Positions 22,692 to 57,850 are shown, counted from the first letter of the stretch. The stretch is 64,000 nucleotides of DNA from Podospora anserina (GCA_017654855.1 CM030337.1:1116001-1180000); one strand, 5' to 3'. Program-made: numbers and translations. The notes: a model not told the origin generated them from the letters alone.

Positions 22692-25371
22692 GTGATGGTG
22701 ATGGGTTGGGCATTGCTACGGGGCGTTTTTAGTGGTGGGGATTTTTATCTACTTTGTGTCAGAGGCAGGAGGAGAAAACAGGAGGGCGTTTGTGTCAGAG
22801 TAAGAGTTATGTTGGTTTGATCGCTGTAGGTCAGTGTGACTGGTGACGATACAATATAACCTTTTTTTCCCCTTTTCTCTTCGATATAACCATGACTTCA
22901 AAGTCCCGCTCCAACGCCCAGGTTTGGCTCCTCGGTCGGGTCGGTTGCAGATGTACTCCTCCTCCCCTCCTCCACCGCCCCTCCTACCACCTCTGATCTT
23001 CCGGATGTTGTGGAGGACTGTCTGTAAGGGTTGGCGGGAGAGTCGGACGTGTTTTGATTCTTGGGCGTCCTGCCATTGGGATATTTGGGAGGGGGTGGGG
23101 GGTTGGTATTCACCTATGTGGAAGCGGGAGAGAGAGGGTTGTGGTCATGATGGTTGATGCGCATGATGGCTGGAGGTTATCACGACGCAAGTAGGTGAGG
23201 CTCAGGTGAGGTTGGTGGGGAGATGCTCAGATGGTATTTGCAACATGGCACTTTTGACAGGTTTGGGGAAGCTGCTAGGTGGCAGTGAAGAGACGATTCT
23301 CCCATCTCAAAAAACACTTTGCTTCTGTGGAATATCGACGCCTCGCTTTCGAGAAGCAATGCTCACCTTTGACATGATGACGAGCATGATCATGGCATCA
23401 ATATTGACTCCCAGAAAGGAAGCTCTACCGCTCAGCTCGGGAGATGACGACTCTGATTGTATTGTGCAACGCCGCACAAGCAGCTCGGGGCGCGGGGGGG
23501 GGGTTATTTAAAGCATCCAGAACGGGAGAGGGCGTCGACGAGAATGCTTCAACGACAGCCGGAGGAACACGGTTGAGGAGGGAAAAACTTCGAGAACTTT
23601 GTTGTAGGACGACATCCTCAGCTGTCCCGGACGTCCCCAGGCGATGCGCATCGGCTGGCGGGAGAGGACATTGCCGTACGCAAATAAACGCAAACGAAGA
23701 CCGGTGTGTCTTCCTTTTCATACAGGGAACAAGACAAGCAGGGCAGTGTAGCAGCAGGAATCCGTACCTGCAGCCAGCTAAACAACATTCCCGTCGTCAG
23801 CACACATACATATCGCCGACCAACAAATGCGCCGAGATGCAGCCCATGTTAGCTCTCTCCCCGCCGCCACCCGACAGACAGCCTTGACTCGCCGTCACTC
23901 TCACCCTCGCAAAGATATCGCACTGCTCGGCGGTTAGAGAGAGTGAGGCATGCAGTGCCGTTGAAATGCGGGCGAGAAACAGCATGAGAAACAGCATGAG
24001 AAACAAAGCAGCAACAACGAGATCAAATCACCATCAAGAGATGCCGATCTCCCCCCTCCTCCCAACCCTGGCGCGTCTTGGGGGAGATCGTCACATCGAC
24101 AATCGACGCAGGCGAGGAACATCCTGGCAGATCGACGAGCAGGGGTTGGGGAGGCACGGAGGGGAGCCAGGGACCCTTGCGGCGGACGGACCCAAAAGAC
24201 GCAACCCACGATCCTCTCTCTGGGAAGACTCCGGAGATCGAGGTTTAGCTTGCCGAAAGAAGCAACGAGAGCCATGTGTCGAGGCCTGAAACCAGGCCAC
24301 GCTAAAAGACAAGAAGTGAAATCGAGTCTTCAGCAAAAGACTCTTTTTTTTCTGAAGAAAAACTGGTGACGACTGAAGATATGCATGATTCATGCTAATT
24401 TTCAGCCCGTCAATCTTCACCATCTTCACAGGGCAAACGGACCTGTGGTACCTGCCAATGTCTCATTTGCCGTCCGTCTTCAGCCACAGGCCATCGTTGG
24501 TCTCTCAAGTATCTATGTCGAGGATTGACTTCCAACAAGACCTGTCACTGTCATCCCAAAGGGACACAACTCCGGGGGATCAGACCTCTCTGCCGAGACG
24601 ACCCAACCACGCCGTCGACACGCAGGAGCAAACGCACGGTCTTTGAATGCTGCCTCGACTTGCTCGACAACACTGTTCGGACTCGTCCCAGAGGCCGCTA
24701 GAACAGTTTAGCCGCTTTGGCGCTGTTTTTTTCTTCCCATGCAAACGCAGAGAAACAACCCCTCCTCACCCTCCTCCTTCGAACAACGCCCCCCGTCCTG
24801 CCTTGCCCTGCAGATGCCGTGCCGTGCAGCTAGAAGACTGCTCGCCTCCAATGATAGGCTGCGAGACTTTTTGAATCCCCGCGGCGCGCAAACTTTTTGC
24901 TCTGGTCCTACGATGTGTGAGAGCCCATGGCTACACACGGGGGTGTTTGATGACTGAGTGTTATCTTCCTCTCACACTACGGAAGCGGCGTGTGGTACTG
25001 CCGGCACCCCCAGACAATGCTTTCTCGGTTCACATCCCAACCAGGTACTTGTGCTACCGAGCGTAGTCGTCATCTGCTAGCCCCCCCGCCGTTTGCCATC
25101 TCAATATATCCTACCACGACTCTAGCCTTGTCCCCGAGGTAGAGCTCAGCTGTTCCTCCCCTTTCTTTCCCCACCCCATGCTCCCAGGCGATCCTTTGAG
25201 TGCTGTCCACCTGATTCCTTGTGATTTTTCCATTCTATTCTGCTTCCCTCCTTTTCACTCTACATCTTTTTTTTTCTTTTTTCCTATCTTTTTTCTTTTT
25301 TTTTCTTTTTATTATTATTTTTTTTTGACCAAAGGTAGCCTGGGGACGAATGGGCTATCCTCTTTTCGAAT

Positions 25372-28137
25372 ATGGGCATCTTCAGCTTTCTCTCAAGAAA
25401 GTCTCATGACAAGCACAAGGCTGCTTCTCTAAGAGCACACGCCTATGACACGACAGCCGCTGGGACTGTCCCTGTTCAAGGTGAGCATATCAACAATATT
25501 GCTGCGGGTAGAGATCCAAGTGAGCTTACACATGTAGGAGCATACCCAGTAGCAGGCAATGGTCCCAATGTTTTCGATACGCTGTCTGGGGGACGACCAG
25601 ACTCTCGTCATGCACAGCTTTCGTCGACGGTGCCGGATAATCACAACGGAGCTGCGCCTGCCCCTGGGGTTCCTCGCTATCGAGACCCGACTACTGACCG
25701 ACCAAACACGGCTCCCAATGGGCAGCCAACGTTGCAACATGTGAGCTCCGGGACCAGGTTGAGGAAGGCCGCCAAGAAAGGTCCTCCCATCTCCTTCAAG
25801 ATGCTTCGAAGCGTTGGCTCTACCATCAGTGGCGACTCGCGACCAGGATCGAAGGGTTCCGAGTTCGAAACCAAGAGTACCTTGCGAGGGACCGTCAGCC
25901 ATTCACGCTCCAGTTCAATGCGTAGCGAAAGTGGCAGGTTCAGAGATATCCTCGACGCCCATTCCGAGCTCAAGCCTCCCGACTTTCGAGCCAGAGTCAA
26001 GGCTGCCGGTGCCAAGGACTATGGAGAGGACGTTGCCGAAAGGAACATGGGAGAAAATGGGTTTGATCTGGAGTCAGAGCATGTCAAGGCCTTCTACAAC
26101 AGCCATCCGAGCGCACCCCGGCCGAGAAGGTCAGCCCCTGCTCTCAACCCAAGAAGCTCGAGGCACACGATTCGGGAGGCACAGAATGGTCAACAACCAC
26201 CACAAAGGCCGATGGCCCCCCCACCTGCTTCCATCGCCCCGTCTCAGCGCTCTCTGCCCCAAGCACTGCCGGGCCAGACGCCCCGACACAAGCCCGCCGA
26301 GACCGCCCTGTACGCTGACATGAAAACCACGGGCGGCGGACACCTGAAGCGACGGGTATCAGTCAACACCTACATGCCTCCAGCTTCCTTCCAGAACACC
26401 AGCGCCGTCTCCTTGAGCAAGGTGCACGGCTCAGAGATCAACACCATCGACCTGGACATTCTGAAGCCGCCGATTGTGATGGGCGCTCCAAGGACAAGCG
26501 GGGAGACCCCGCGGACGGCGAGGATACCGCGGGATTCGGTGATGCTCGCGAGGAGGAAGGTGTCGATACCGGGCCACCTCGCTCGGCGTGACAGCTCTTC
26601 CCCAGAAAGGACGTTTTCTCTCCGGTCAGCTACCACCCGACCCCAGCACCACCACCAGCGTGCCTCAATGAGTAGTTCAGCCAGCGCATCGTTTTCCCCC
26701 CGCCACCGTCACAGTTTACACACGTTGCACTCGTCTATTTCTTCGTCTGGTGTTCAGAGCTGGGATGGCAGCACGTTTCTTCAGGAAACAACAACAACAA
26801 CAACAACAACAACACCGCTGGCTTACCCGCGTCGTCTTCACACTGCTACTCAACCCTTTCAGCCACCGTCCGTGTCTGAGGTTGATGTTGACGCTGTGGA
26901 TGATTGGGTGGAATTTTGTTCTTGTTAGTGATTTTTTTCTTCTTCTTTTTTCTCATTTTTTTCTTCTTTTTTTCCTTATTTCGACACTCACCCATTTTTT
27001 TGCTCAGCGATCATGTGCTAACTTTGCGTGTTCTCTCTTCTAGCCCACAAGACAGCTTCTACAACCCCTAAACCTACCGCTTCCCCATTGGCAAACCTGG
27101 GGTTTCGTCGTCCCCTCTCCATGATGGGAAGCACACCGCCACCGCCGCCCCTGAACCCCCCCGCCCGACCGGCAACCGCTGTACCGTTTGAGATCCCTGA
27201 ACATCACGTCCCGATTCGCACGAGGAGTTTGAGAGGTTACTCGGCCTCGTCCGGGACACCGACCACGCACACCGTCACGGTTAGATCCTCCTCCAGTCCT
27301 GGACGTCCGCAGTCACGAACGACGGTCACGTCTGCGTCTGTGGATGATGACAGTCTGGCGCCCGAGGCGGTCAAGCTTGCTGGGGGGGAGGATGATGATG
27401 GGTTTAATATGGATGATCACATTTCTTCGGATGAGGTCGATAGCGTTCTCGGGGGTGGGGGGAAACAGCCGAGCGGGGAGGGGGAGGAGGAGCTGCTCTG
27501 GAAGGAGGAGGGGTATGGGGGTGGGGGGTTGATGTTGCCGGGGTTGTGGGAGGTTTTTCCGGAGGCGAAGGTAAAGGGGAGTTATGATGGGATTGGGGAT
27601 AGTTTTGGGCCTAGGGGCGGGAGGAGGAGGAGGAGGAGGAGGAGGTATGTGATTGATACGGGGGTTGAGTATGGGAGTAGTGGTGATGAGGGAGAGGGGT
27701 TTGGGGAGGAGAGGAGGGAGGAGGAGGAGGAGGAGGAGGAGGAGATGGTGAGGGGGAGGGGGGTGGTTGTTGGAAGGGTGAGGGGCAGGGGAAGGAGAAG
27801 GGGGAAATTGGAGGGGATTTATGGAGAAAAGGAGGGGAGTGATGCTGATGATGAGGAGGGGACGCCGAGGGGGAGGAGGGCGTCGGTGGGGAGTTATTAC
27901 ATGGAGTTGAGGGAGAAGGTTGGGGTGGGGGTTATTGAGGAGGAGAAGGAGGCGATGGGCAAAGTGGATGCGGCTGCTGCGGTTAGGATGAGGAAGCAGG
28001 TCAAGTGTGCGGAGAGGGCGGCTGGTGGGGGGAGGGTTAGGCTGCGAACGGGAGGGGAGGGGGCGGCGAATATTGGGGTCAGGAGGAACAAGTCGGTGCC
28101 GGTGTTGTGTGTTGAAGGGGAGGAGTACAGGGGGTGA
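25372..28137 (+). CDS. Uncharacterised low-complexity fungal protein
   Basis: Two long ORFs joined by a phase-1 intron 26924-27043 (GTTAGT...GCTAAC...TAG) with consistent frames; probable in-frame intron 25481-25537. One conserved-looking block (FRDILDAHSELKPPDFRARVKAAGAKDYGEDVAERN); acidic/Gly/Arg-rich C-terminus. Confidence 0.75.
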
Positions 28138-42795: not shown

Positions 42796-43140
42796 CGCTC
42801 GCCCCGGGGCAGAAAAAAGAAGAGAATTGCGCTATGCGCCGCCCAGGCCAGGGGGCTCAGGAAAGAAAATTCTCTCGTTATTTTTCTCGGCCTTCGAGTT
42901 TCGTCACAGGGTTCTTGCGTCGTCGGATTCGGGGTTGCTGCGCATATCGCAAATTCAATGTTTCCCAGTTCAAAATTCTGGGCGGCACCTGGTGCTCCAG
43001 ACCTCCGATCTTTTTTCGCTAGCGTCATTGGTGTCTCTTGGCCCGTGCCATGCACACCCCTTCTCTCTCTAAGAGAGAGACATGCATTTTGAGCCTCTTG
43101 AATTGGCATTTACAACTGTTGTACACATTTGATACTTACA

Positions 43141-43182
43141 CCCATAACCCATAACCCATAACCCATAACCCATAACCCATAA
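43141..43182. repeat. (CCCATAA)6 heptamer tandem repeat
   Basis: Six consecutive copies seen directly, downstream of the IMP2-like stop codon. Confidence 0.95.
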
Positions 43183-43226
43183 ATATACAGCCTTTCCCAT
43201 GTCCCTTATCCGTTCCCTTTGCGTGA

Positions 43227-43296
43227 CCATTCCCACAACCACTCCCACAACCCACTCCCACAACCACTCCCACAACCACTCCCACAACCACTCCCA
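43227..43296. repeat. 12-mer tandem repeat CCACTCCCACAA (~5.5 copies)
   Basis: Seen directly, immediately 3' of the IMP2-like CDS. Confidence 0.9.
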
Positions 43297-43311
43297 TACC
43301 TCCCATCCCTC

Positions 43312-45633: not shown

Positions 45634-46469
45634 TTTGACTGTGCTTGCCGTTCCCAGGCGGGGCGAACTCGGGATATGTGTTGGTTTTTGTTGTGAGGGA
45701 GAAGTTCGACCAGTCGAGAAAAAGGTGCGAAACGGGTGAAGACGGTGCTTTGGTGTCTTGGGAAGGACCTGGAAATAGTTGAAGCTCTTGGTATCGCTGC
45801 GTTCAACACTTGCCCTTTCAAAGAACAGTCATTGGGGCCCGCCCCGCGAAGCAAAAATCGGTGCCACCACTGAACAATACTAGAAAGTGGGCTGTGGCTG
45901 GTGCGCCTGGCCATTGGTGGGGTGAATTGTGGCCCCACTCTCCAAGAGCAACAGGCTTCCCTGTCGGGTTGAGCCAAAGGTGGGATGAAATGTGGGGGTA
46001 ATTTTGGTATTGCTCTGCGTAACATACGGTATTCTCTCTGCTTGGCGGCCCACCTGCGCCAGAATTCCGCAGAAGACCTACGTCAACGGTTGGAGCTCCA
46101 ATCACACGCCAACCTGCCACTCCTGCCAGGAACACCTCAATCTGAACAAGGGAGGTCGGCTGGCCGTTGCTACGTCTGAAGCCTGAAGTATAAATCTGGT
46201 ACCTTTGGAGATCCCTTCTTCTTTTGAGCTCTCACAATCCGTTTGTTGCTCTTGTGGCGTTCAGGTTCAGTTTGGGGGTTGCTGACTGTCTTTCATTGGA
46301 TTATTGATACCTCCTCCTGCTTCCTGTCTGGTCATGAGCAACAGCCGAGGAACGAATCCGATATGATATTTCAAAGTCACGCGTCCTTCCCAACAATACC
46401 CGATAACTTTCCGGGTGACCGTTTCTCGTCTCAAAAGCTACCATCAGCACCAAGCACGCCCGAATCGCC

Positions 46470-49400
46470 ATGACGGAGCTTAGTACAACCGTGGCGGTTG
46501 CTGCCGCTGCGGGCTCCGATGCTTTGTCCTCTGCCGTAGCCACGGCCAGCGATGTAGCAAACACCCACGGCTCGTCATCTTGGCTGGGCATGTTCACAAA
46601 GGTCCTCATCTGGGTTTTGCAGCTCCTGTCAACAATACTCTACTATGTCATCAAGCTGGCCACCATATCGGTCCCGACGCTGCTTTACAACAACCTGTTC
46701 TCCAAGAGCTGGACCGTCACCATGAACGCAACAACGCTCATGCTCATTATAGCTGCTATTGCCTTGGGCATGGCCTACTTTGTCCGCTATCACTATCTCA
46801 CTTCGTATGAGAGATTACCGCCAGAACCCCAACGCAAGCAGCCGAGCATCGAAATATTCTCAAACACCAGAGAGGAGGATGCGAAGGCTGCCTTGGCCAC
46901 CTATCTGGACCAGTTCATCAGCGCTATCAAGATCTTTGGCTATCTGGAGGCTTCTGTCTACCATGAGCTCACCCGAAGTGTCCAAACTAGGACACTCATA
47001 GCTGGAGAAACTTTGAATCTGGAGGAAGAGGAGGGGTTCTGTCTGGTGGTGAATGGGCTGGTGGAGATCTTTGTCAAGTCAGGAGAGAACCGTTCGTTTG
47101 CTCATAGCCCACATATCAGCGCTGTGGACGGGTTGAGTTCGAGCGACGATGAGCATTCGATTCCTGGGCAGCAGCGTTACCAGCTTTTGACCGAGGTTCG
47201 CAATGGTGCGCCCATGTCATCGATTTTCTCCATCATGTCTCTATTCACCGAAGATGTACCCCTGAGGTCTCCAGAAGATGAGGTGTCTGGGCCTGGCCTG
47301 TTTGCTGGGTATCCGCCGAGCGCAGGCTATCCGCCGAGTGCAGGACTGGGAGTGGTACGTCCTCGTCTGGCGCCCATGTCACAACCAGTGACACAGCCAG
47401 GGACACCTCAAAGGCATGATTCTGCGACGAGCTCAATAGAGAACCTACCAGAATCTGTCATTACGCCCGAGACTCCTGTCTCTGTTGATACACTGCCCCA
47501 TGTTCCGCCAATCAGCCTTGACACAGGCACGGCCAGCAGGCCAAAGAGACCAATCCCGAAGCGGGCAGCAACCAGCTCTGCTCATCCAGACATCATTGCG
47601 AGGGCGACGGTGGACACAACCATAGCCATCATTCCCGCCAGTGCCTTTAGACGTCTAATCCGCATCTATCCCAAGGCAACCTCACACATTGTCCATGTGA
47701 TACTGTCCCGATTCCAGAGAGTCACGCTCGCCACTGCGTACAACTACTTGGGTCTGACTGCGGAGGTCATGCAGATTGAGCGCAACATGCTCAAGTACAC
47801 GACACGTGAGCTTCCAAACCACTTACGGGGCGACGCGCTGGACAGACTCAAGGAGAAATTCAAGAAGGAGAGGGAGCGGCTAGGCGAGGAAGAAGTTGGT
47901 AAGGGGATCGCTCTCCACAATGCCGGAGCTGGCCGTCGCCGCCAGTCTCAAGCTACCTTGCGGAAAGACGCCGTGCTGCAAGCCTTCGCAAAGCAAAGAC
48001 ACCGATCGCTTGTTGGTTCGGGTGATGGCCCCAGCCCCGGAGACCTCTTGGGAGACATGCAGGCAGCCAGAAGTGGTGGCCATCACCACCGAGCTCCCAC
48101 TCTCTCGGCCACCTCACCTCAGTTTGACCTGCATGTCCCACGGGAAGCCATGTCTCCCCTTGCCCAGCGGACTCCCAACCCTTTCAATACGCTGAGGAAC
48201 CCCCATGTGTCCATAGCCAAAGGGGAATCGGTCGATGAAGATAACCTCTTCAGAGAGTCCATCCTGGAGTGCATGTTCAAAGCCCTGGGCTTGGCTAATA
48301 ATGGGACAGTCAAGGACACGGATTCTGTTCAGGCGTCTCCACGGCTAGTATCGCTTGATGGGCGCCGCCAGAAAGCCGTCTTTACTACTGGGGCATTTGG
48401 TCTCATGGGCGGCGTGGGGGCATCTGCTGATGGCGATACAGAGTCGGTAGCTTCTACAGGATTTTCTGCTGTTCCAGTCAACCCCACTGTTCTAGCACAA
48501 GAAATGAGAGACGAAGTGGAAATCGTCTTCTTCCCCAAGGGTTCGGTACTAGTGGAGCAAGGCGAGCGGAATCCTGGGCTTTACTATGTTGTCGATGGCT
48601 TCCTCGATGTCTGTACCCAGACGGAGGATTCGCACTCGGATATTATCCACTCGTCAGGGAGCACGTCGCTGCATGCTATGGATAGTTACGAATCACTCTG
48701 TGCACCCCACCAGAGACACTCGTCGATACCCGGAGCAAAGGATGGCCACTTCAGGAACGCACGCAAGAAAAAGACGGGACGACGGAGTGTGGCGCTGATC
48801 AAGCCTGGCGGTCTGGCAGGCTATATCGGGACGATTTCGTCCTACAGATCATTCATCGACGTTGTCGCCAAAACTGATGTCTATGTCGGCTTCCTGCCGC
48901 TGACGTCGATTGAGAAGATTGTGGACCGATATCCCATTGTGTTGTTGACCATGGCCAAGAGACTGACAAACCTACTTCCTCGCCTCATTCTGCACATTGA
49001 CTTTGCGCTGGAGTGGGTTCACGTCAATGCCGGACAGGTGATTTTCAACGAGAAAGAAGAGAGCGAAGCCATCTACATTGTGCTAAATGGACGTCTCAGG
49101 CTAGTAGAGCAGCGAGAGGACGGTGGCAGCAATGTCAAGGCCGAGTATGGTCAAGGCGAGAGTATCGGTGAGCTCGAGGTTCTCACAGAGTCGAGCCGCT
49201 CGGGAACTTTGCAGGCCATTCGTGAAACTGAGCTTGTCAAGTTTCCACGCACTCTGTTCAACAGTCTGGCACAGGAACACCCCAACATCACGATCAAGAT
49301 TTCCAAGATCATTGCATCCCGCATGAGAGCGCTGATCGACGACCCCACCAAGATGCTGAGCCCTAAGGATTCGGGCAGCAGGATATCAACCACCAGGATC

Positions 49401-51029
49401 TCATCGACACTCAACCTGAGGACGGTTGCTATCCTGCCAGTAACTTCGGGCGTTCCCGTTGTGGACTTTGGACACAAGTTGCTCAGTGCTCTGCAACAAG
49501 TCGGCATTCCCAACGGGGCTACCTTGTTGAACCACGTCGCGGTGCTCAACCATCTGGGCAAACACGCCTTTGCCAAGATTGGCAAGCTCAAGCTTAGCCA
49601 GTATCTTGCGGACTTGGAGGAAAAGTACGGGCTGGTGATCTACATTGCGGACACCAACCCTAATACTCCGTGGACGCAGACCTGCATCTCTCAGGCCGAT
49701 TGCGTGTTGTTAGTCGGGGTGGCTGAGGGATCGCCGGAGATAGGGGACTATGAGCATTTCATGCTGGGTCTCAAGGCCACTGCCCGCAAGATCTTGGTCT
49801 TGCTGCATCCTGAGCGGTATTCTAACCCAGGTCTTACCAGAGCTTGGCTCAAGAACCGGCCATGGATTAATGGTGGCCACTTCCACATCCAGATGGCCTA
49901 CAGTCCCACACTGCCGCCAATGCACACCGGAGCCAAGCGAACCCTTAAACAAACAGTCCAAAACATCCAAGCCGAGATTCAAAAGTTCACCTCCCGCCGT
50001 GTTCGCCATAGCTACATGCCTGACGCGCCTTACAAAGGCGACTTCCACCGTCTCGCCCGTCGCCTCTGCGGGAAGTCTGTCGGTCTGGTTCTTGGTGGCG
50101 GCGGAGCCCGTGGCATTGCTCAAATCGGCGTCATTCGCGCCATGGAAGAAGCCGGCATTCCCATCGATATCATTGGAGGCACCTCCATCGGCGCTTTCAT
50201 TGGCGCCCTCTACGCCCAGCACGCCAACATGGTACCGATATACGGCCTCGCAAAGAAGTTTGCCGGTCGCATGGCAAGCATCTGGCGTTTCGCCCTCGAC
50301 TTGACCTACCCCTCTGCCTCGTACACCACCGGCCACGAATTCAACCGCGGGATTTACAAAGCCTTTGCCAAAACCCAAATCGAAGACTTCTGGCTGGAAT
50401 ACTACTGCAACACGACGAACATTTCCAAATCCCGCGCCGAGTTCCACACGAGCGGTTACGCATGGCGATATGTCCGCGCATCCATGTCCCTCGCGGGTTT
50501 GCTCCCTCCCCTTTGCGACGAAGGGAGCATGCTCCTCGACGGGGGGTACATCGACAACCTCACCGTCTCGCACATGAAATCGCTCGGTTCCGACGTCATC
50601 TTTGCCGTCGACGTGGGCGCGCTGGACGACAACACGCCGCAGCAGTTTGGTGACACTTTGTCGGGGGTGTGGGCGTTTTTTAACAGGTGGAACCCGCTGA
50701 GCAATGTGCCCAACCCGCCCACGCTGGCGGAGATACAGGCGAGGTTGGCGTATGTGAGCAGTGTGGATGCGTTGGAGAGGGCGAAGACGATGCCGGGGTG
50801 CTTCTACATGAGGCCGCCGATCGATGAGTATGGGACGTTGGACTTTGGGAAGTTTAACGAGATTTATGAGGTTGGGTATGAGTATGGACGGGGGTATCTG
50901 AAGGAGTTGAGGGAGAAGGGGGTGTTGCCGTTGATTGGGGAGGATGGGAATGGGGGGAAGGAGAAGGGGGATGGGGGAGGGAAGGCGGGGTTGAGGAGGA
51001 CTATGGCGCCGAGGAGGAATAGTATCTGA
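46470..51029 (+). CDS. NTE1: Lysophospholipase NTE1 (patatin + cyclic-nucleotide-binding domains)
   Basis: 1519-aa ORF with N-terminal TM segments, cNMP-like domains, and patatin motifs GGGGARG, GTSIG (GxSxG) and DGGY. Confidence 0.95.
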
Positions 51030-51335: not shown

Positions 51336-52557
51336 TCACCACAAAACAGTAGTATTACAAACCATCCTCTGTCCCCGGACCTGGTCGACCACCTCCTTTT
51401 TATGCCAACACCTCGCGAAACGTTTCGCTTCGGAGGGGTGATCAAAGCCGATCAAGAAACGGGAATACACCTTGATTTCTTCCCCCTTTTTCTTCTTACC
51501 CCCTGTATCCCCGGTAGAATTATCATTTTGCGACTCTGGCAATCCGACATAGCTCATCGTCGCCCTCAGCGGTGTGATGGCGCCCTTTTTCCTGGTTTTG
51601 GGGAGTATCCCCCAGGGTGCGTCGTCGTTTTGGATCAGATGGGATAGATACCGGGGTGTGAGCTTGCCGTTGCTCAGGCGGAGGAGGATGAAATTCCCTG
51701 CTGCCTGTTGAGGGACATCGGAAAAGGGTTGGGGGATTGGTAGTAGACGGGCTTGGTTGGTCTTTGGGAGGGTGCTGGTTAGGAAGGAGGTTTGAAGGCT
51801 TGACAAGGGGTGGATGGAGGAGGTTATGGTCGGGATGTGAGGGGGGATGAGGGAGTGAGGTATGGATTGGGGGGTGGGGGGAGGGGGGGAGGAGAGACGG
51901 GATAGGAGGGCGGAGCGGGAGAGGGAGTGTTGGGTTTTGAGGAGGGAGAGGTAAGATAGGGCTGAGGGGCGGGAGGGGAAGAAGAGGTAGAAGATTTCGG
52001 TTGGGGAGAGGTGGTGGGGGGTACGGTGTTGGATTACTATAGCAGGCGGTTAGTCTTTGGGGGGGGGCCAAGAAGGGGGGAGGGGGGAGGGAACCTTTGT
52101 CGGGACCGCTGGTCCAGCCTTGGACGTGTTGGCCTGACGGGGAGACGCGGTAGAAGTCTGATTCTAGGAGGTCTCGGGGGGCGGAGAGGATGAGGACTGT
52201 TGGGGCGTTGGGGTCTTTGTCAGTGGTGGTGGTGGTGGTGGTGTCATCGGCGAAGGTGGACTGGAGCTGCTTTAGCCATTCGCCGAGTTCTTGGTCGTCG
52301 TGGAGGGATATTCGTGGTGGTTCGGGGTCATCGTTTTGGGCGGCGGTGGCGGTGGTGGTGTTGCCTAAGGGTGAGGCTTTGGATGGTTGGGGGGTGGAGG
52401 CTTTGGGGAAGAGCCGGTTGTAGAGGGAGGGTTTGGTTCTTTTTTGGTGATTGGTTTTGGGTTCTGATGAGGATGCGAAATGGCGACGGGCTACTGTTGT
52501 GAGTTGCCATGGTTGGGAGGTGAGTGGCTGCAGTATGTGCAGTCGTTTTGGTGGCAT
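51336..52557 (-). CDS. Uncharacterised, probably mitochondrion-targeted protein
   Basis: Exons 52557-52095 and 52036-51336; phase-1 intron GTTCCC...GACTAAC...TAG. The spliced frame is open through LLESDFYRV...GW...K-VIQHRTPHHLSPTEIFYLFF to the 51336 stop. Presequence-like start (...VARRHFASS). Confidence 0.7.
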
Positions 52558-52864
52558 TTTGTGAGATGGCTTATAGAGTTGTGAACTGTCGAATAAGTGT
52601 GAGCGAGTGTGTGTGAGTGAGAGGTGGTTGTGAAAACTGTGCCAAGACACGGCCCCACCCACGGCGCCGGGAACGCCTTCCGAGCCGGCACCGGCAGGTC
52701 GCTCTTTCCTGAGAAATATTCCAAATTCTAGGTTTTGGAAAAGTGTAATTAGTTTATGAGGCGTTATGTGGCTCACGAGCGCCCCAGATACAAGCCTCAT
52801 TATTCCCAAACTATTTCTTCCGACAGGTAAGCATCACAAATTTGCGCATGTTGCAAATTCTTTC

Positions 52865-53095
52865 AGGTGCCGAAAATACTAACTTGGACCTTCAGATATC
52901 TCGCATACGCCTCTCAAAATACTCAATAGGTGCTCAAAACACATCAATAGGCCTTAAATTATCTTCAATAGGCCTTATATTATCTTTGACAGGCCTTGAA
53001 CTATATTTGACAGGCCTTGAAATATTTTTGACAGGCCTAGAATCATCTCCAATACGCCTTCGACTATCGCTTTGACACCTTCAAGAGATCATTCG
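52865..53095. repeat. Degenerate 21-bp tandem array (~11 units, AGGCCTT core) upstream of the AAA ATPase
   Basis: Cores or variants at 52865, 52886, 52907, 52928, 52949, 52970, 52991, 53012, 53033, 53054 and 53075 (exact 21-nt spacing). Confidence 0.85.
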
Positions 53096-53105
53096 AGACG
53101 TCAAA

Positions 53106-55421
53106 ATGAAGAGTTTAGACTTCCGAATCCGGAAGCTACACGTCAACACCGACGCCGACAAGCGTCTACAGAAGCGACAACCTTCTCGGATCTATGTCAA
53201 CGAGGAGGCTCTGATCGAATTAACGGGCTCAAAAGACGGTGGCAAGGCTGTCTGTATCGAAAGGATCCATGAGCTAAATGCTGTGAGGCGTGAGGCCACT
53301 CTGTGGAAGGCCCCCGAAAAGCTGGATAAAGCCGTCACACAAATGTACGACGATTTTCGGACTGCCTGCGGCTTCAACCTTGGCGAGCAAGTGCGCATCA
53401 CTGCGCTTGGCGGAGCTCTCCCAGACGCCGATGAGGTCATCGTCGAGCAAAAGCCGAGCGAAGATGGTTCGCTACCAGACCCCATTTTCCCCGAAGATCT
53501 CCCAGGCTGGATTGTTCTTATCGCAGGGCGTCTCTCACAAATCGAACATGTACACACCGGCTGGACCATCAAGGACCTCTACGTCCGGGGCCCAAAACGT
53601 TCTTTCATTGTCACCTCGGTCAATGGGAGGCCTACTGGTAACGCACGATATATCGACAGGAAAACCCGGCTGGTTGTTGGGACAGCGGCGCGCACGAACG
53701 AGACTGGCGAGGGACCAGTCAAACCTTTGGAGAGGAAACTCGAATTAAGGGGTATCCAAGGTCTGGACGCACCCCTCAAGAAGCTCAACGACCTGCTGCG
53801 AGCCTTCACCTTTGGAGGCATCAAGAAGAGCTTCACGTTCCCAGGCATCGTCATCCATGGTGGCCACGGCACTGGGAAGACAATGCTCCTCAACAGTCTA
53901 GCCCACACAGGCTGGGGAACAGTTTTCCGTATCAAGTTCAAGGACAAACTCGGCGAGATTCAGGAGACTTTTCAGACAGCAAAGCTTCAGCAACCAAGTA
54001 TCATCCTGATCGACCAGCTCGAGAGGCTGATTGACAAGGACCGCAGCAACCGAGATGCCGTCATTCTCGCCCTCTGTGATTTGTTGGACGGCCTGGCGGC
54101 AGAAAAATCGACGAAGGGAGAGGCCCCCCAGGTGCTCGTGGTGGCCACCTGCTTGGATTATACGTCCGACATACCCGAAGACCTCAAAGACCCCGGTCGG
54201 TTCACTTCTGAGATTTACCTTCCCATGCCAGACGTAGAGGGTCGCCGTGAGATTCTCTCATCGTTGGATCTCTGTGTTCCACCAGACCAAGAGGACGAGC
54301 TTCTCAACCAACTGAGTGCAAGCACTCACGCCTACAATGGCAAGGACTTGAGGCGGCTGGCAGACGAAGCCTGCTTGATCGGTACAACCCGTCATCTATC
54401 GACACTTACGGTTTCTGCGCCCACCCCTGACCAATCTCGCCTTCTTTCTCCTCCACCCGAAACCGAAGAGGACGAATCTGCTCCCGCTTCGGCGCCCGCC
54501 ACCCTCATTCCCGCCGACTATCACAATGCGCTCCGGCTTGTCCGCCCGTCCCTGATGCACGATATCAACCTCAAGCCGCCCCCGATCCACTGGGACGACA
54601 TCGCCGGCCAATCTCTCGTCAAACAGTCCCTCCGTCGCGCCGTCCGTTTGTCCTTGGAACCCCCCGAGGTCCTCGCGCAATTCTTCGACCGTCCCCCGAA
54701 GGGCTTCCTGCTGTATGGACCTCCAGGTTGTTCCAAGACCATGGCGGCTCAGGCCATGGCTACCGAATCCGGCCTCAACTTCTTCGCTGTCAAGGGTGCC
54801 GAGCTGCTGAACATGTACGTTGGTGAATCTGAGCGAGCCGTCCGCCGGTTGTTCCAGCGTGCCCGCGAGGTTGCCCCCAGCATGATCTTCTTTGATGAAA
54901 TCGACAGCATCGCCGGCCAGCGCTCTGGTTTCTCGTCTTCGTCTTCCAAATCAAACGGTTCCAGCGGCGGTGTCAACGTTCTGACGACGTTATTAAACGA
55001 GATGGACGGTTTTGAAGCCCTCCACGGCGTCGTCGTCCTGGCAGCGACCAACCGTCCCCATGCTCTTGACCCGGCATTGCTTCGCCCAGGTCGATTCGAT
55101 GAACTGATTTACGTCTCACCGCCAGACCAGGAGGCACGCCGTGCCATCTTTACCAAGGTCGGTGCCAAGAGGAAGATGAACGACGACGTAGATATCGACA
55201 AGTTGGTTGAGGATACGGAGGGCTATTCCGGTGCAGAGATCAAGGGCATCTGCGCGGCAGCAGGAGTGGCGGCTTACGATCGGTTCATCAAGGAGGGAGG
55301 TACGGACGTGGGAATACGGATGGGTGATCTGGAGCATGCTATTAAGAACCAAAAGAAGCAGATCACACGGGAGATGATCAAGGGGTTTGAAGACTGGGAG
55401 AGGCAGTTTGGGAAGGTTTGA
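53106..55421 (+). CDS. AFG2: Type II AAA+ ATPase, Afg2/Drg1 (SPATA5)-like 60S maturation factor
   Basis: D2 has the subfamily-typical GPPGCSKT, VKGAELLNMYVGESERAVR, FFDEIDS and ATNRPHALDPALLRPGRFD. D1 has GGHGTGKT with a degenerate Walker B. Confidence 0.8.
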   Translation: MKSLDFRIRKLHVNTDADKRLQKRQPSRIYVNEEALIELTGSKDGGKAVCIERIHELNAVRREATLWKAPEKLDKAVTQMYDDFRTACGFNLGEQVRITALGGALPDADEVIVEQKPSEDGSLPDPIFPEDLPGWIVLIAGRLSQIEHVHTGWTIKDLYVRGPKRSFIVTSVNGRPTGNARYIDRKTRLVVGTAARTNETGEGPVKPLERKLELRGIQGLDAPLKKLNDLLRAFTFGGIKKSFTFPGIVIHGGHGTGKTMLLNSLAHTGWGTVFRIKFKDKLGEIQETFQTAKLQQPSIILIDQLERLIDKDRSNRDAVILALCDLLDGLAAEKSTKGEAPQVLVVATCLDYTSDIPEDLKDPGRFTSEIYLPMPDVEGRREILSSLDLCVPPDQEDELLNQLSASTHAYNGKDLRRLADEACLIGTTRHLSTLTVSAPTPDQSRLLSPPPETEEDESAPASAPATLIPADYHNALRLVRPSLMHDINLKPPPIHWDDIAGQSLVKQSLRRAVRLSLEPPEVLAQFFDRPPKGFLLYGPPGCSKTMAAQAMATESGLNFFAVKGAELLNMYVGESERAVRRLFQRAREVAPSMIFFDEIDSIAGQRSGFSSSSSKSNGSSGGVNVLTTLLNEMDGFEALHGVVVLAATNRPHALDPALLRPGRFDELIYVSPPDQEARRAIFTKVGAKRKMNDDVDIDKLVEDTEGYSGAEIKGICAAAGVAAYDRFIKEGGTDVGIRMGDLEHAIKNQKKQITREMIKGFEDWERQFGKV

Positions 55422-55694
55422 AGGCCTGGAATTTTGTGAATTAGGCGTAGGTACTATCTACCTAGGCCTTTTTGGTATGTAAACAGGCCTTCTTGGTATC
55501 CAAGTAGGCATTCGTACTATCAAAATAGGCCTTTTTGCCATTTTATTGTGCTTTTTAGAACCGAAATATGTGGTTTGACTAATACTGATCTGCCTTTTTA
55601 CTATTTTTATAGGTCTTCTTGAATGTCAAGAGGCCTACCATATGTGTGAACATGCCACCTTAACTATCATTGAAGGCGTTCTGACTAGCCAAGT
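55422..55694. repeat. Degenerate 21-bp tandem array (AGGCCTT core) starting directly after the AAA ATPase stop codon
   Basis: Cores or variants at 55422, 55443, 55464, 55485, 55506, 55527, 55590, 55611, ~55631 and 55674. Confidence 0.8.
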
Positions 55695-56711
55695 TTTAAA
55701 CAGCTCTCTGGGAACCATTCCAGCACACTCATTGGGCAATGCAAGAAATGCCCTCACCTAGCACAAACCAGCAACAGGCCAGAGGGACCGTCGGTGGTGT
55801 TGAACACAGACAGACTAGTCCTTTCGTGGTTTATTTCCCCTATCAGAATGCCACTAGGATTCCACAAGACAATGACTGACATGGGATAAATTTAGCGACA
55901 ACCCCCGCCATTTTAGGGGACTTTTTGCCTCTCCACAGACCCCCCCCGGCCGTCCCCCAGCTGAGTGCCGAAGTGACGTCAAGTAACCCACCATTTCTTA
56001 TCACGGGGAGCAGACAATCCCAAGGTCGCCATCAGAGAAGCAGTCACGAGCCAGCCAAAAGGGAAGGGAACAAGATAGTGTGTGAAGTGCGACCTGAAGC
56101 ACTGTGGGAGCAGCAAGAAACACAAGATAGTATTTTTTTTAATTTTTTTTTGGTTACGCTACCTAGGTTATTCACTGGCGCGGGCACTCCGAACGACTGA
56201 CTGAATATTGACAACGTCTTTTTTTCCCTCTCCCCCTTCTTTCCCCGCAGCCCGCTCGCGGTTCAGCCTTCTCTATTTTTTTTGTTTTTACACCCGCCGC
56301 CGCAGCCCATCCCTTGCGAACAGTTGTCTGTTTCGTTGCCTGTGTGTGTCGCATTCTCATTTTGCCCCTGTCGCAAAACTATTTTGCGACCAAGACCGCG
56401 CGCAACAAAAGGCAAAAAGAAATCAGTCGTAATATTCAACATATCGGCAGCGCGCGCGCGACGTAGGACACGACACACACCCCAATCCTGTTCCTGTTGT
56501 TTCCTCCCTCCCTCGAGTCAAGCCCCGTTGTTCCCCAGACGAGCAAACAGACTGAAACGAAACAGGTGGTGGTCTGTTACTCGTGTGTCAACACAAACAC
56601 ACAAACCCATCTGAACTACCATAACCCAACCTTCCCCGACCTCGATAATACCGAATAATCATACCAAAATAATCACCCAAAAAACACACGGGGCGACACC
56701 GTCACCAAAAA

Positions 56712-57850
56712 ATGTCGTCCGCCCTCGAAGCCAAAATCGTCATCCTCGGCTCCCAAGGTGTAGGCAAAACCTCCCTCGTAACCCGGTACTGCAAAGGCGC
56801 CTTCGACCCAGCCAAAACAACCTCCACCGTCGGGGCATCGTTCATGACGAAGAGGGTAGTAGACACAGACACCGACACCCTCGTCCGTCTGCAAATATGG
56901 GACACCGGTACGTTGCGTTCCCCCTCCTCTCCCCCTCGTTCTCCCCCTCCTCTCCCTTATCCCAAATCACTAACTAACCTCTTTTTCCCCCCGTCCATAC
57001 AGCCGGCCAGGAACGCTTCCGCTCCATCTCCCGCCTCTACTACCGCGGCGCAAACGCCTGCATCCTCTGCTACTCTATAACCGACTCGTCCTCCTTCCAC
57101 GAAATGTCCCTCTGGCTCACCGAGCTCCGCCGCAACTTACCTTCTGACATCATCCTCCACGTGGTCGGGACAAAGGCGGATATTGTCGCGAAGGACCCTT
57201 CGAAGAGACAGGTTCCGTTTGAGAGGTGTATCGCCTATGTGGCGGAGAATCTCGCTCCGGGAAGGGGCTCAACCCCCCCTCCGTCCGCCACCCTCCCTTT
57301 ACCCTTTGCACCGTCTTCTTCTGAACTAGCGGCTTCGTCGTCGAACCCGAGATCGAGCGGGTTGTTTTCGGCTATATCGTCCACCGACCCTGGACCGAAA
57401 TCTCCAAGCTCGAAACGGTCGTCTGGGTTTTGGGGCCAGGAGGTGGGGTGGGATGCCTGTCATGAGATTTCTGCCGAGAGCGGGGAGGGGGTGGAGGAGG
57501 TTTTTAGGGTCGTGACGAGGAAGCTGGTGGAGAGGGACAGGAAGATGAGGGCTGATTTGTTGGCTGCTAGTGGGGGGAGGTTGGATGGTGGTGGGTATAT
57601 GGGGCCGGAGACGCCTTTTTTCTCAAGTGTGGCTGCTACGGCGGGGACGGATGATCAGGATGGGGGAGGGCAAGGGGGGTATTTTGATGCTAGGTTTGGA
57701 GTAGGGGGGAATAGTGGGGGGAGTTTTAGGGTGGGAAGGGATAGGAGGAGTTGGTTGTTTAGTCCGGGGTTCAGCACGCCGGGGTTGGGGACGGGGGATC
57801 AGGGCCAGGGGCAGTATGTTGATGGGCAGAGGGGGGGGAGGTGCTGTTAG
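56712..57850 (+). CDS. Divergent Rab-family small GTPase
   Basis: Exons 56712-56907 and 57003-57850. G1 GSQGVGKT, G2 TVGASF, G3 WDTAGQERF, G4 GTKAD, G5 EISA, and a C-terminal CC prenylation motif. Confidence 0.9.

Follow-up and report, generated by a model that had tools for sequence, protein, structure and literature searches.

Two arrays of an AGGCCT(T) core with a 21-bp period bracket one ATPase open reading frame in Podospora anserina

What places two arrays of the same short motif against the two ends of a single coding sequence? The question is raised by the gene Pa_6_6000 of Podospora anserina, which codes for a type II AAA ATPase and lies in a 64,000-nucleotide stretch of DNA (GCA_017654855.1 CM030337.1:1116001-1180000; hereafter the window). 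Its coding sequence is bracketed by two degenerate, AT-rich arrays of an AGGCCT(T) core spaced at 21 bp. A first-pass annotation had described this arrangement from the sequence and offered three explanations for it, namely helically phased protein-binding sites, pairing between the 5' and 3' untranslated regions (UTRs) of the messenger, and subterminal repeats left by a mobile unit, now decayed, that once carried the gene. Both arrays are real, and the features needed for the argument are as follows.

52865–53095, plus strand: upstream array, 11 units of 21 bp, consensus AGGCCTTnAAatATCTttnAt, GC 0.39.
52949–53053, plus strand: the five units in the middle of the upstream array, each with a perfect AGGCCT core, between -157 and -53 relative to the ATG.
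53096–53105, plus strand: leader AGACGTCAAA, readable from the sequence as a degenerate 12th unit, in register, before the ATG.
53106–55421, plus strand: Pa_6_6000, type II AAA ATPase, an uninterrupted intronless open reading frame (ORF) of 771 aa, stop codon included.
55422–55694, plus strand: downstream array, 13 units of 21 bp, consensus AGGCcTTtTTacTATnnAAnT, GC 0.39.
55439–55537, plus strand: a 63-bp (three-unit) higher-order duplication, from the repeat search and the lag-63 identity.

When the upstream flank is written in 21-nt rows from 52865, the cores read, in order, AGGTGC, GGACCT, ACGCCT, AGGTGC, five times AGGCCT, ACGCCT and ACACCT, so that the five central cores (starting at 52949, 52970, 52991, 53012 and 53033) are perfect and the outer six agree at four or five of the six positions. 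The array ends 10 nt before the ATG (53106). The leader filling this interval is similar to the distal units (AGGTGCTCAAAAC) and provides the start context TCAAAATG, and two TATA-like stretches, TTATATTATC and CTATATTTG, may be recognised inside the central five units. On the other side of the gene, the array starts at the base directly 3' of the TGA (55419–55421), with no gap, and perfect cores are found at 55422, 55464, 55485, 55527 and, shifted by -1, at 55631. The units at 55548 and 55569 have degenerated strongly, and those at 55631 and 55652 are both shifted by -1, the register being regained at 55674. The description given in the first-pass annotation, of 11 upstream units in exact register ending shortly before the ATG and of a downstream array mostly in register from the first base after the stop, is thus borne out.

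The same period was recovered with Tandem Repeats Finder, both upstream (52944–53060, 5.6 copies, 79% matches, score 94, together with a period of 42 in the same flank, score 126) and downstream (55463–55537, 3.6 copies, 70% matches, score 73). Identity at lag 21 was 0.59 in the upstream and 0.46 in the downstream array, against 0.262 and 0.266 in dinucleotide shuffles (z 11.1 and 7.3), and none of 2000 shuffles reached the observed values even when the best of all lags from 4 to 59 was taken, so that the periodicity stands up to the comparison with composition-matched shuffles that the first-pass annotation had proposed as a check. Half of the AGGCCT hexamers of the window (10 of 20) lie inside the two arrays. 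In a near-core scan of all 64 kb, AGGCCTT with at most one mismatch was hit 88 times on the plus and 96 times on the minus strand; the pairs of such hits spaced by 20–22 nt (nine on the plus strand, five on the minus) all fall within the arrays, and no further array-like cluster or unit copy was found in the window, in agreement with the earlier remark that nothing comparable occurs near its other genes. GC content is 0.39 in both arrays, 0.56 in the coding sequence and 0.54 in the window as a whole. Both flanks therefore carry head-to-tail copies of constant period, within the 10–100 bp range of minisatellites, above composition-matched chance. The downstream array carries in addition the three-unit duplication, with 81% identity between 55439–55474 and 55502–55537, the variant cores AGGCGT and AGGCAT at homologous places, and a lag-63 identity (0.50) exceeding that at lag 42 (0.39).

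Comparison of the two arrays with each other shows that their consensuses agree at all seven core positions and at only about two of the 14 spacer positions (hypergeometric probability 3.1e-4, or about 0.0065 allowing for the 21 possible rotations). Spacer similarity between the arrays was at the level of shuffles, with z 0.89 in direct and -1.16 in inverted orientation (gapped alignments, all 11 x 13 unit pairs). The first-pass annotation had also pointed to a secondary AT, at unit positions 13–14 upstream (A in 8/11 units, T in 8/11) and 14–15 downstream (A in 9/13, T in 8/13), and had taken it to match if the arrays were inverted relative to each other. The arithmetic is right, and the placement of this dinucleotide fits either inverted arrays or a 1-nt indel; on the contrary, the bases flanking the core fit direct arrays. 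Indeed, position 7, just after the core, is T in 8 of the 11 upstream and in 9 of the 13 downstream units, while an A precedes the core in none of the 11 upstream units and in four of the 13 downstream ones, and the column correlations at flank positions 7 and 21 are 0.99 and 0.57 for direct, 0.11 and -0.79 for inverted orientation. Since these core-flanking bases point that way, we take the arrays, with little certainty, to be direct. The possibility that the gene was inserted into one continuous array was also considered and set aside: the registers differ by 10 when the coding sequence alone is removed, and they match only with an insert of 53096–55421, which is true by construction and uninformative, 53096–53105 being itself unit-like.

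If the units had simply decayed after their duplication, mismatches should be spread uniformly over the unit, and this was found in neither array. Because all unit positions share the same duplication history, permutation of positions is a fair null for equal rates, and with the core block fixed by the other array, core mismatches were fewer than spacer mismatches both upstream (p 0.002) and downstream (p 0.007); the earlier statement that spacers vary while core and period are kept is in line with this result. Since the array ends had originally been chosen for their likeness to the core, the test was repeated using only the units within the limits set by Tandem Repeats Finder (5 upstream, 4 downstream), with p 0.018 and 0.012, respectively. 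The core signal was weaker without a predefined block (716 of 20,000 permutations upstream, 1901 of 20,000 downstream). A conserved G+C-rich block within AT-rich arrays would moreover be the reverse of what AT-biased decay is expected to leave. As to the spacing, the -1 shift at 55631 is compensated by a +1 return at 55674, a local period of 20 nt at 52913–52951 lies within an unbroken 21-nt register, and the TATC element sits one base later in the downstream units, whose length is still 21 bp. According to a rough model, such retention of register has a probability of 0.0005–0.02 if indels make up at least 10% of mutations and is unremarkable if they make up 3–5%, so that a register kept through compensated 1-nt indels is suggestive only as a sign of selection. 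The core is conserved above its spacers and recurs at an integral number of helical turns (21 bp = 2 x 10.5 bp).

Since the heptamer and the two-turn period are kept while the spacers are unrelated, and since both arrays adjoin one coding sequence, the explanation that fits best is the first of the three options, and we tentatively favour the view that the arrays are helically phased sites of a putative DNA-binding factor, forming a regulatory or insulating module specific to this gene. Core conservation, the heptamer and period shared by both sides and the kept register agree with that option, whereas binding itself, cooperativity and any regulatory or insulating role are what the sequence leads us to infer. 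Each cluster would have arisen by tandem duplication, and selection would afterwards have retained the core and the 21-bp spacing; one sequence-specific factor would recognise YAGGCCTT in both clusters and, 21 bp being two turns of B-DNA, the sites would lie on one face of the helix, where bound proteins could act cooperatively. Bound at the promoter or leader through one cluster and at the 3' side of the gene through the other, the factor would mark or insulate a single transcription unit, which would permit its control separately from the divergent neighbour, 549 bp away. In a more specific version, which we regard as quite unlikely, the factor would coat both arrays and bridge them into an iteron-like one-gene loop, or insulated micro-domain, setting the expression of the ATPase independently of that neighbour; here too selection would act on the core and the two-turn spacing, leaving the spacers free to evolve.

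Several points weigh against phased protein sites. No fungal factor binding AGGCCT was found in the literature searched, which leaves out most subscription journals, and we know of none. The downstream array is weak, only five of its 13 cores being perfect and two units almost unrecognisable. The extended motif is asymmetric, with a T after the core and no matching A before it, so that a simple symmetric dimer on a palindrome would not be the obvious reader. Array ends picked by eye from core-like matches bias the conservation test on all units, and the test on repeat-finder units, less exposed to this bias, comprises just five and four of them. The 63-bp higher-order duplication and the degenerate edges of the arrays are ordinary minisatellite behaviour. 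Finally, median UTR lengths in P. anserina are 178–191 bp (5') and 212–239 bp (3') (PMC9801653, Table 2), and the arrays being about as long as typical UTRs, most cores are probably transcribed and a role at the RNA level is possible.

The explanation that competes most directly is a neutral one, doubtful in our view but to be taken seriously: a 21-bp unit grew by slippage or unequal exchange in an AT-rich flank and then drifted, a copy in the other flank was seeded by local duplication or conversion, and the arrays adjoin the coding sequence only because expansion must stop there. Head-to-tail units better kept in the centre than at the degenerate edges, the three-unit duplication and the AT-rich non-coding surroundings are all what such minisatellites would show, and neither a heterochromatin nor an H3K4me3 peak marks the gene (no H3K4me3, H3K9me3 or H3K27me3 peak is called on Pa_6_6000 in the wild type and three mutants, according to the published supplements). 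In addition, at least 120 loci of bacteria and archaea, unrelated to the Podospora locus, contain AGGCCTT-N14 three times in succession within near-perfect, young 21-bp tandem repeats of 3–12 copies with a median lag-21 identity of 0.94; probably these represent protein repeats of seven residues, together with other young arrays. Among the 120 listed, an open frame runs across the repeats in 74. The heptamer and the 21-bp period are therefore not special in themselves. Uniform drift, however, does not predict agreement at seven of seven core positions with spacers at shuffle level, nor fewer core mismatches in both arrays, nor a register kept through compensated indels, and the only two arrays of the window touch both ends of one coding sequence.

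The cores might instead be read in the transcript. Under this alternative, which we consider unlikely, both arrays belong to the UTRs of the Pa_6_6000 messenger and YAGGCCUU is read in the RNA, for instance by a putative RNA-binding protein acting on stability, localisation or translation. The arrays take up the 241 nt preceding the ATG and the 273 nt following the stop, near the typical UTR lengths given above, and the asymmetry of the bases flanking the core runs in the same direction relative to transcription on both sides. Further upstream, the sequence offers a candidate exon with intron signals:

52766–52895, plus strand: candidate upstream exon and intron signals, with an ATG at 52766, MWLTSAPDTSLIIPKLFLPT; all signals are read from the sequence.

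This candidate exon of 20 codons ends in CAG/GTAAGC (52827), followed by TACTAAC at 52876 and CAG at 52893–52895, splice-like signals that would put the start of transcription before the array. In the gene model of P. pseudoanserina, the exon at 52766 is spliced over the whole upstream array to ..CAAG/AGATC (53085/53086); a shorter intron at 52827–52895 may equally be read from the sequence, and the stretch may represent an intron of the 5'UTR, an upstream ORF or a different N-terminus of the protein. Each array also folds somewhat better than its own shuffles (z -2.4 and -3.0), but this is expected from any repeated self-complementary hexamer. Against a reader of RNA, the exact 21-nt spacing would have no reason, the RNA-seq re-annotation table holds no transcript model for the gene, and no Rfam family matched within 52400–56300 at E <= 1.

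Coding of the downstream array by read-through was likewise considered and rejected, the in-frame TGA being followed by five codons, a second TGA (55437) and 60 open codons without a Met. The frame after this second TGA has a 7-residue period (IRRRYYLPRPFWYVNRPSWYPS..., in 55419–55622), and is probably open because one stop-free unit of seven codons (21 nt) is repeated. At the end of the gene (55384–55430), the final codons and the stop (GGTTTGAAGGCCTGGA) repeat GGTTTGAAGACTGGGA, which lies 31 nt upstream within the coding sequence, with 81% identity, and this duplication and the first downstream core overlap.

An origin in mobile DNA, with the arrays as the ends of one gene-carrying element or as two old non-autonomous insertions with AGGCCTT as the transposase-binding motif, is very unlikely. 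Elements of the hAT, CACTA and Mutator groups are known to have short transposase-binding motifs arrayed near their ends with variable spacers, and a conserved core with free spacers would fit such sites; strict tandem spacing at 21 bp is, on the contrary, untypical of them. An inverted-repeat search over 52400–56300 found neither terminal inverted repeats nor target-site duplications around either array or the whole unit, only short scattered pairs (12–27 nt, 70–93% complementary), none of them at array boundaries, and the bases flanking the core point to direct arrays. No further copy exists within the 64 kb, and the stretch past the downstream array (55695–56300), considered as a decayed second copy of the gene, has no similarity to the gene start in the repeat search. 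The gene itself lies among housekeeping genes (NTE1-like phospholipase, Rab GTPase, NCA2, Brr2, eIF2-alpha), and its homologues (48–99% identity, most covering 99–100% of the protein, 99% in the P. pseudoanserina entry) belong, mostly as one per named species, to three orders of Sordariomycetes (Sordariales, Coniochaetales and Diaporthales, going by the species names). In Triangularia and Apiosordaria, the contig bearing a relative of the ATPase gene equals in length the contig bearing a relative of Pa_6_5995, its neighbour. By these sequence comparisons the ATPase gene is a conserved host gene, not cargo, and the third option of the first-pass annotation is contradicted by the homologues, the missing terminal inverted repeats and the direct flank bases.

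The second option, in which self-complementary AGGCCU cores would pair the 5'UTR with the 3'UTR and circularise or mask the messenger, is scarcely credible: AGGCCU does pair with itself, equal spacing would arithmetically allow several simultaneous core pairs and one 12-nt inverted match exists (CAGGCCTTGAAA at 53011 with TTTGAAGGCCTG at 55417, 92% complementary), but the core flanks are not complementary beyond the hexamer and the cofolding gain, -13.8 kcal/mol, is that of shuffles (-10.5 +/- 4.1; z -0.8; 35 of 150 as good or better).

The favoured reading, of phased sites for a DNA-binding factor, concerns a gene whose product had been labelled AFG2/Drg1-like. The protein has the architecture of type II AAA ATPases, an N domain followed by two AAA domains, with two PF00004 stretches and AAA_lid_3 in Pfam, which has no match in the N-terminal 220 residues. 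The predicted model of the N domain (predicted local distance difference test score 87.4) has a Cdc48-type fold, matching the N domains of 55LCC AFG2A, Drg1/AFG2, NSF (NSF-N), VAT (VAT-N) and p97 (p97-N) with E from 8e-10 to 8e-8, the first two being narrowly the best. D2 is canonical and D1 divergent, with Walker A GGHGTGKT (residues 252–259) and DQ, not DE, at the Walker B position (303–304), a reading shared by all 8 Sordariales sequences that were aligned; judged from these motifs, D1 probably does not hydrolyse ATP. Bit scores were 421 with yeast Afg2, 406 with archaeal VAT and about 355–381 with Cdc48/p97, and with yeast Afg2 only D2 (residues 471–768) aligns, to both D1 and D2 of Afg2, so that full-length orthology to yeast AFG2 over other members of the Cdc48 clade was not found. 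In a published table the Neurospora crassa orthologue is NCU06393 and the Saccharomyces cerevisiae orthologue is given as 'NA' (PMC3689799, supplement file 3). The earlier label is therefore a fair description at the level of the fold and of D2, and does not extend to orthology; as to the part of AFG2/Drg1 in freeing Rlp24 from pre-60S particles, the main texts searched gave no functional data for Pa_6_6000 or NCU06393. By its predicted sequence features, the protein would be an unfoldase of the Cdc48/Afg2 type, without sign of a DNA-binding or replication function.

The surroundings of the gene include the following features.

51526–52557, minus strand: Pa_6_5995, a proline-rich protein of unassigned function, divergent, its ATG (52557) 549 bp from that of the ATPase.
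56712–57850, plus strand: Pa_6_6010, coding for a GTPase of the Rab/Ras family; a single intron follows exon 1, and the ATG lies about 1 kb past the downstream array.
46419–51029: an NTE1-like phospholipase, a housekeeping neighbour.

Other genes around the locus code for NCA2, a Brr2-type helicase, eIF2-alpha and a mitochondrial carrier. The product of the divergent gene is 96% identical to PODANS_6_5995, has no Pfam hit, and its relatives were found only in Podospora, Triangularia and Apiosordaria. The same gene is annotated as incompatibility-induced, and it causes a strong G skew of the plus strand, up to 0.87, at 51700–52500. Published transcript coordinates of Pa_6_5990, Pa_6_6020 and Pa_6_6030 match the window with a single offset of about +1,092,686, within a few bp, which would put the locus near chr6:1,145,300–1,148,600; by these coordinates and the identities of the two proteins, the window is nuclear DNA from the anserina complex of Podospora. 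Table S1 of the RNA-seq re-annotation holds no transcript model for Pa_6_5995, Pa_6_6000 or Pa_6_6010. During vegetative incompatibility Pa_6_6000 changes by up to -4.83-fold and Pa_6_5995 by +2.99-fold, the Rab gene being flat (PMC3689799, supplement file 3), and during ageing Pa_6_6000 rises from 12.8 to 29.0 transcripts per million (tpm) and Pa_6_5995 falls from 5.8 to 1.7 tpm (PMC3869774, supplement). This opposite regulation of the ATPase gene and its divergent neighbour is compatible with separate control and is no proof of it. Pa_6_6000 is not listed in the supplements of the PaRid paper, and those of the ageing study give no SuperSAGE tag sequences.

Four kinds of known systems resemble the Podospora arrangement, which is a member of none of them. 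In the Su(Hw) region of the gypsy insulator of Drosophila, a short core recurs in about a dozen degenerate copies between AT-rich spacers, and pairs of insulators bracket transcription units. The Podospora arrays share with it the degenerate core array, the AT-rich spacers and the bracketed unit, whereas the Su(Hw) region belongs to another kingdom, motif and protein, lies within a retroelement and has no strict tandem period; to our knowledge, no fungal insulator protein reads AGGCCT. The 21-bp repeats of SV40, three near-perfect copies carrying Sp1 GC boxes in the viral early promoter, are alike in the 21-bp period, the GC-rich promoter core and the two helical turns, and differ in the core and in having no 3' array. 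Iterons of the F and P1 plasmids are direct, helically phased protein sites of about 20 bp in two arrays bracketing the initiator gene, but they belong to bacterial replicons in which the flanked gene encodes the iteron-binding initiator, whereas in Podospora it is an unfoldase gene on a fungal chromosome. The fourth kind, tandem repeats in fungal promoters (Magnaporthe PWL2, PMC8035637; Aspergillus fumigatus cyp51A TR34/TR46, PMC9239056), is alike in that short duplications adjacent to a gene are reported to multiply transcription-factor sites; the repeats described there are few, near-identical and on the 5' side only, whereas the Podospora locus has 11 + 13 old degenerate units at both gene ends, of which only the 7-bp core and the period are kept. 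The arrays are also like an ordinary eukaryotic minisatellite in their head-to-tail units of 10–100 bp, higher-order duplication and degenerate edges, and unlike it in the core shared between unrelated spacers, in the exact placement at the gene ends and in the better-kept core.

Neither AGGCCT arrays nor this locus were found to have been described in the literature searched. There, no paper joins AGGCCT with Podospora, AGGCCT with Neurospora leads only to unrelated work (as judged from title and start of abstract), '21-bp repeat' together with 'filamentous fungus' has no match, and Pa_6_6000, Pa_6_5995, PODANS_6_6000, Pa_6_5990, Pa_6_6010 and NCU06393 are absent from main texts. In the passages covered, the TRISS report (PMC12366691) deals with gene-scale tandem repeats and is not applicable to 21-bp arrays, and the Podospora genome paper (PMC2441463) treats minisatellites as mapping markers only. 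Look-alikes of TFIIIC B-box, zinc-responsive, GATA and other motifs each match no more than one or two units, in no case at the conserved heptamer, and a scan for bacterial-type promoters and terminators, irrelevant to a fungus, gave four sites of each kind where 2.4 and 4.4, respectively, were expected.

Elsewhere in the window, a perfect (ACCCATA)x6 at 43140–43182 is followed by 5.8 copies of the 12-mer ACCACTCCCACA at 43226–43296, and these C/A-rich microsatellites (43140–43311) overlap ORFs without a Pfam match. Similar T/C-rich tracts stand just before and just after the ORF at 25339–26928 (25264–25326 and 26931–26981). The second of them lies within an apparent intron (GTTAGT, TGCTAAC, TAG, about 26925–27043) joining this ORF to the next one; this ORF does not count as a second bracketed gene.

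If the arrays are only minisatellites, the locus is a clean case of one core motif surviving in two arrays with randomised spacers. If they are phased sites, it would be a compact natural example, in a filamentous fungus, of a single gene bracketed by matching arrays of sites, and would provide a test bed for communication between promoter and terminator, for the insulation of close divergent genes and for selection on helical phasing, while pointing to a new DNA-binding factor with the motif YAGGCCTT.

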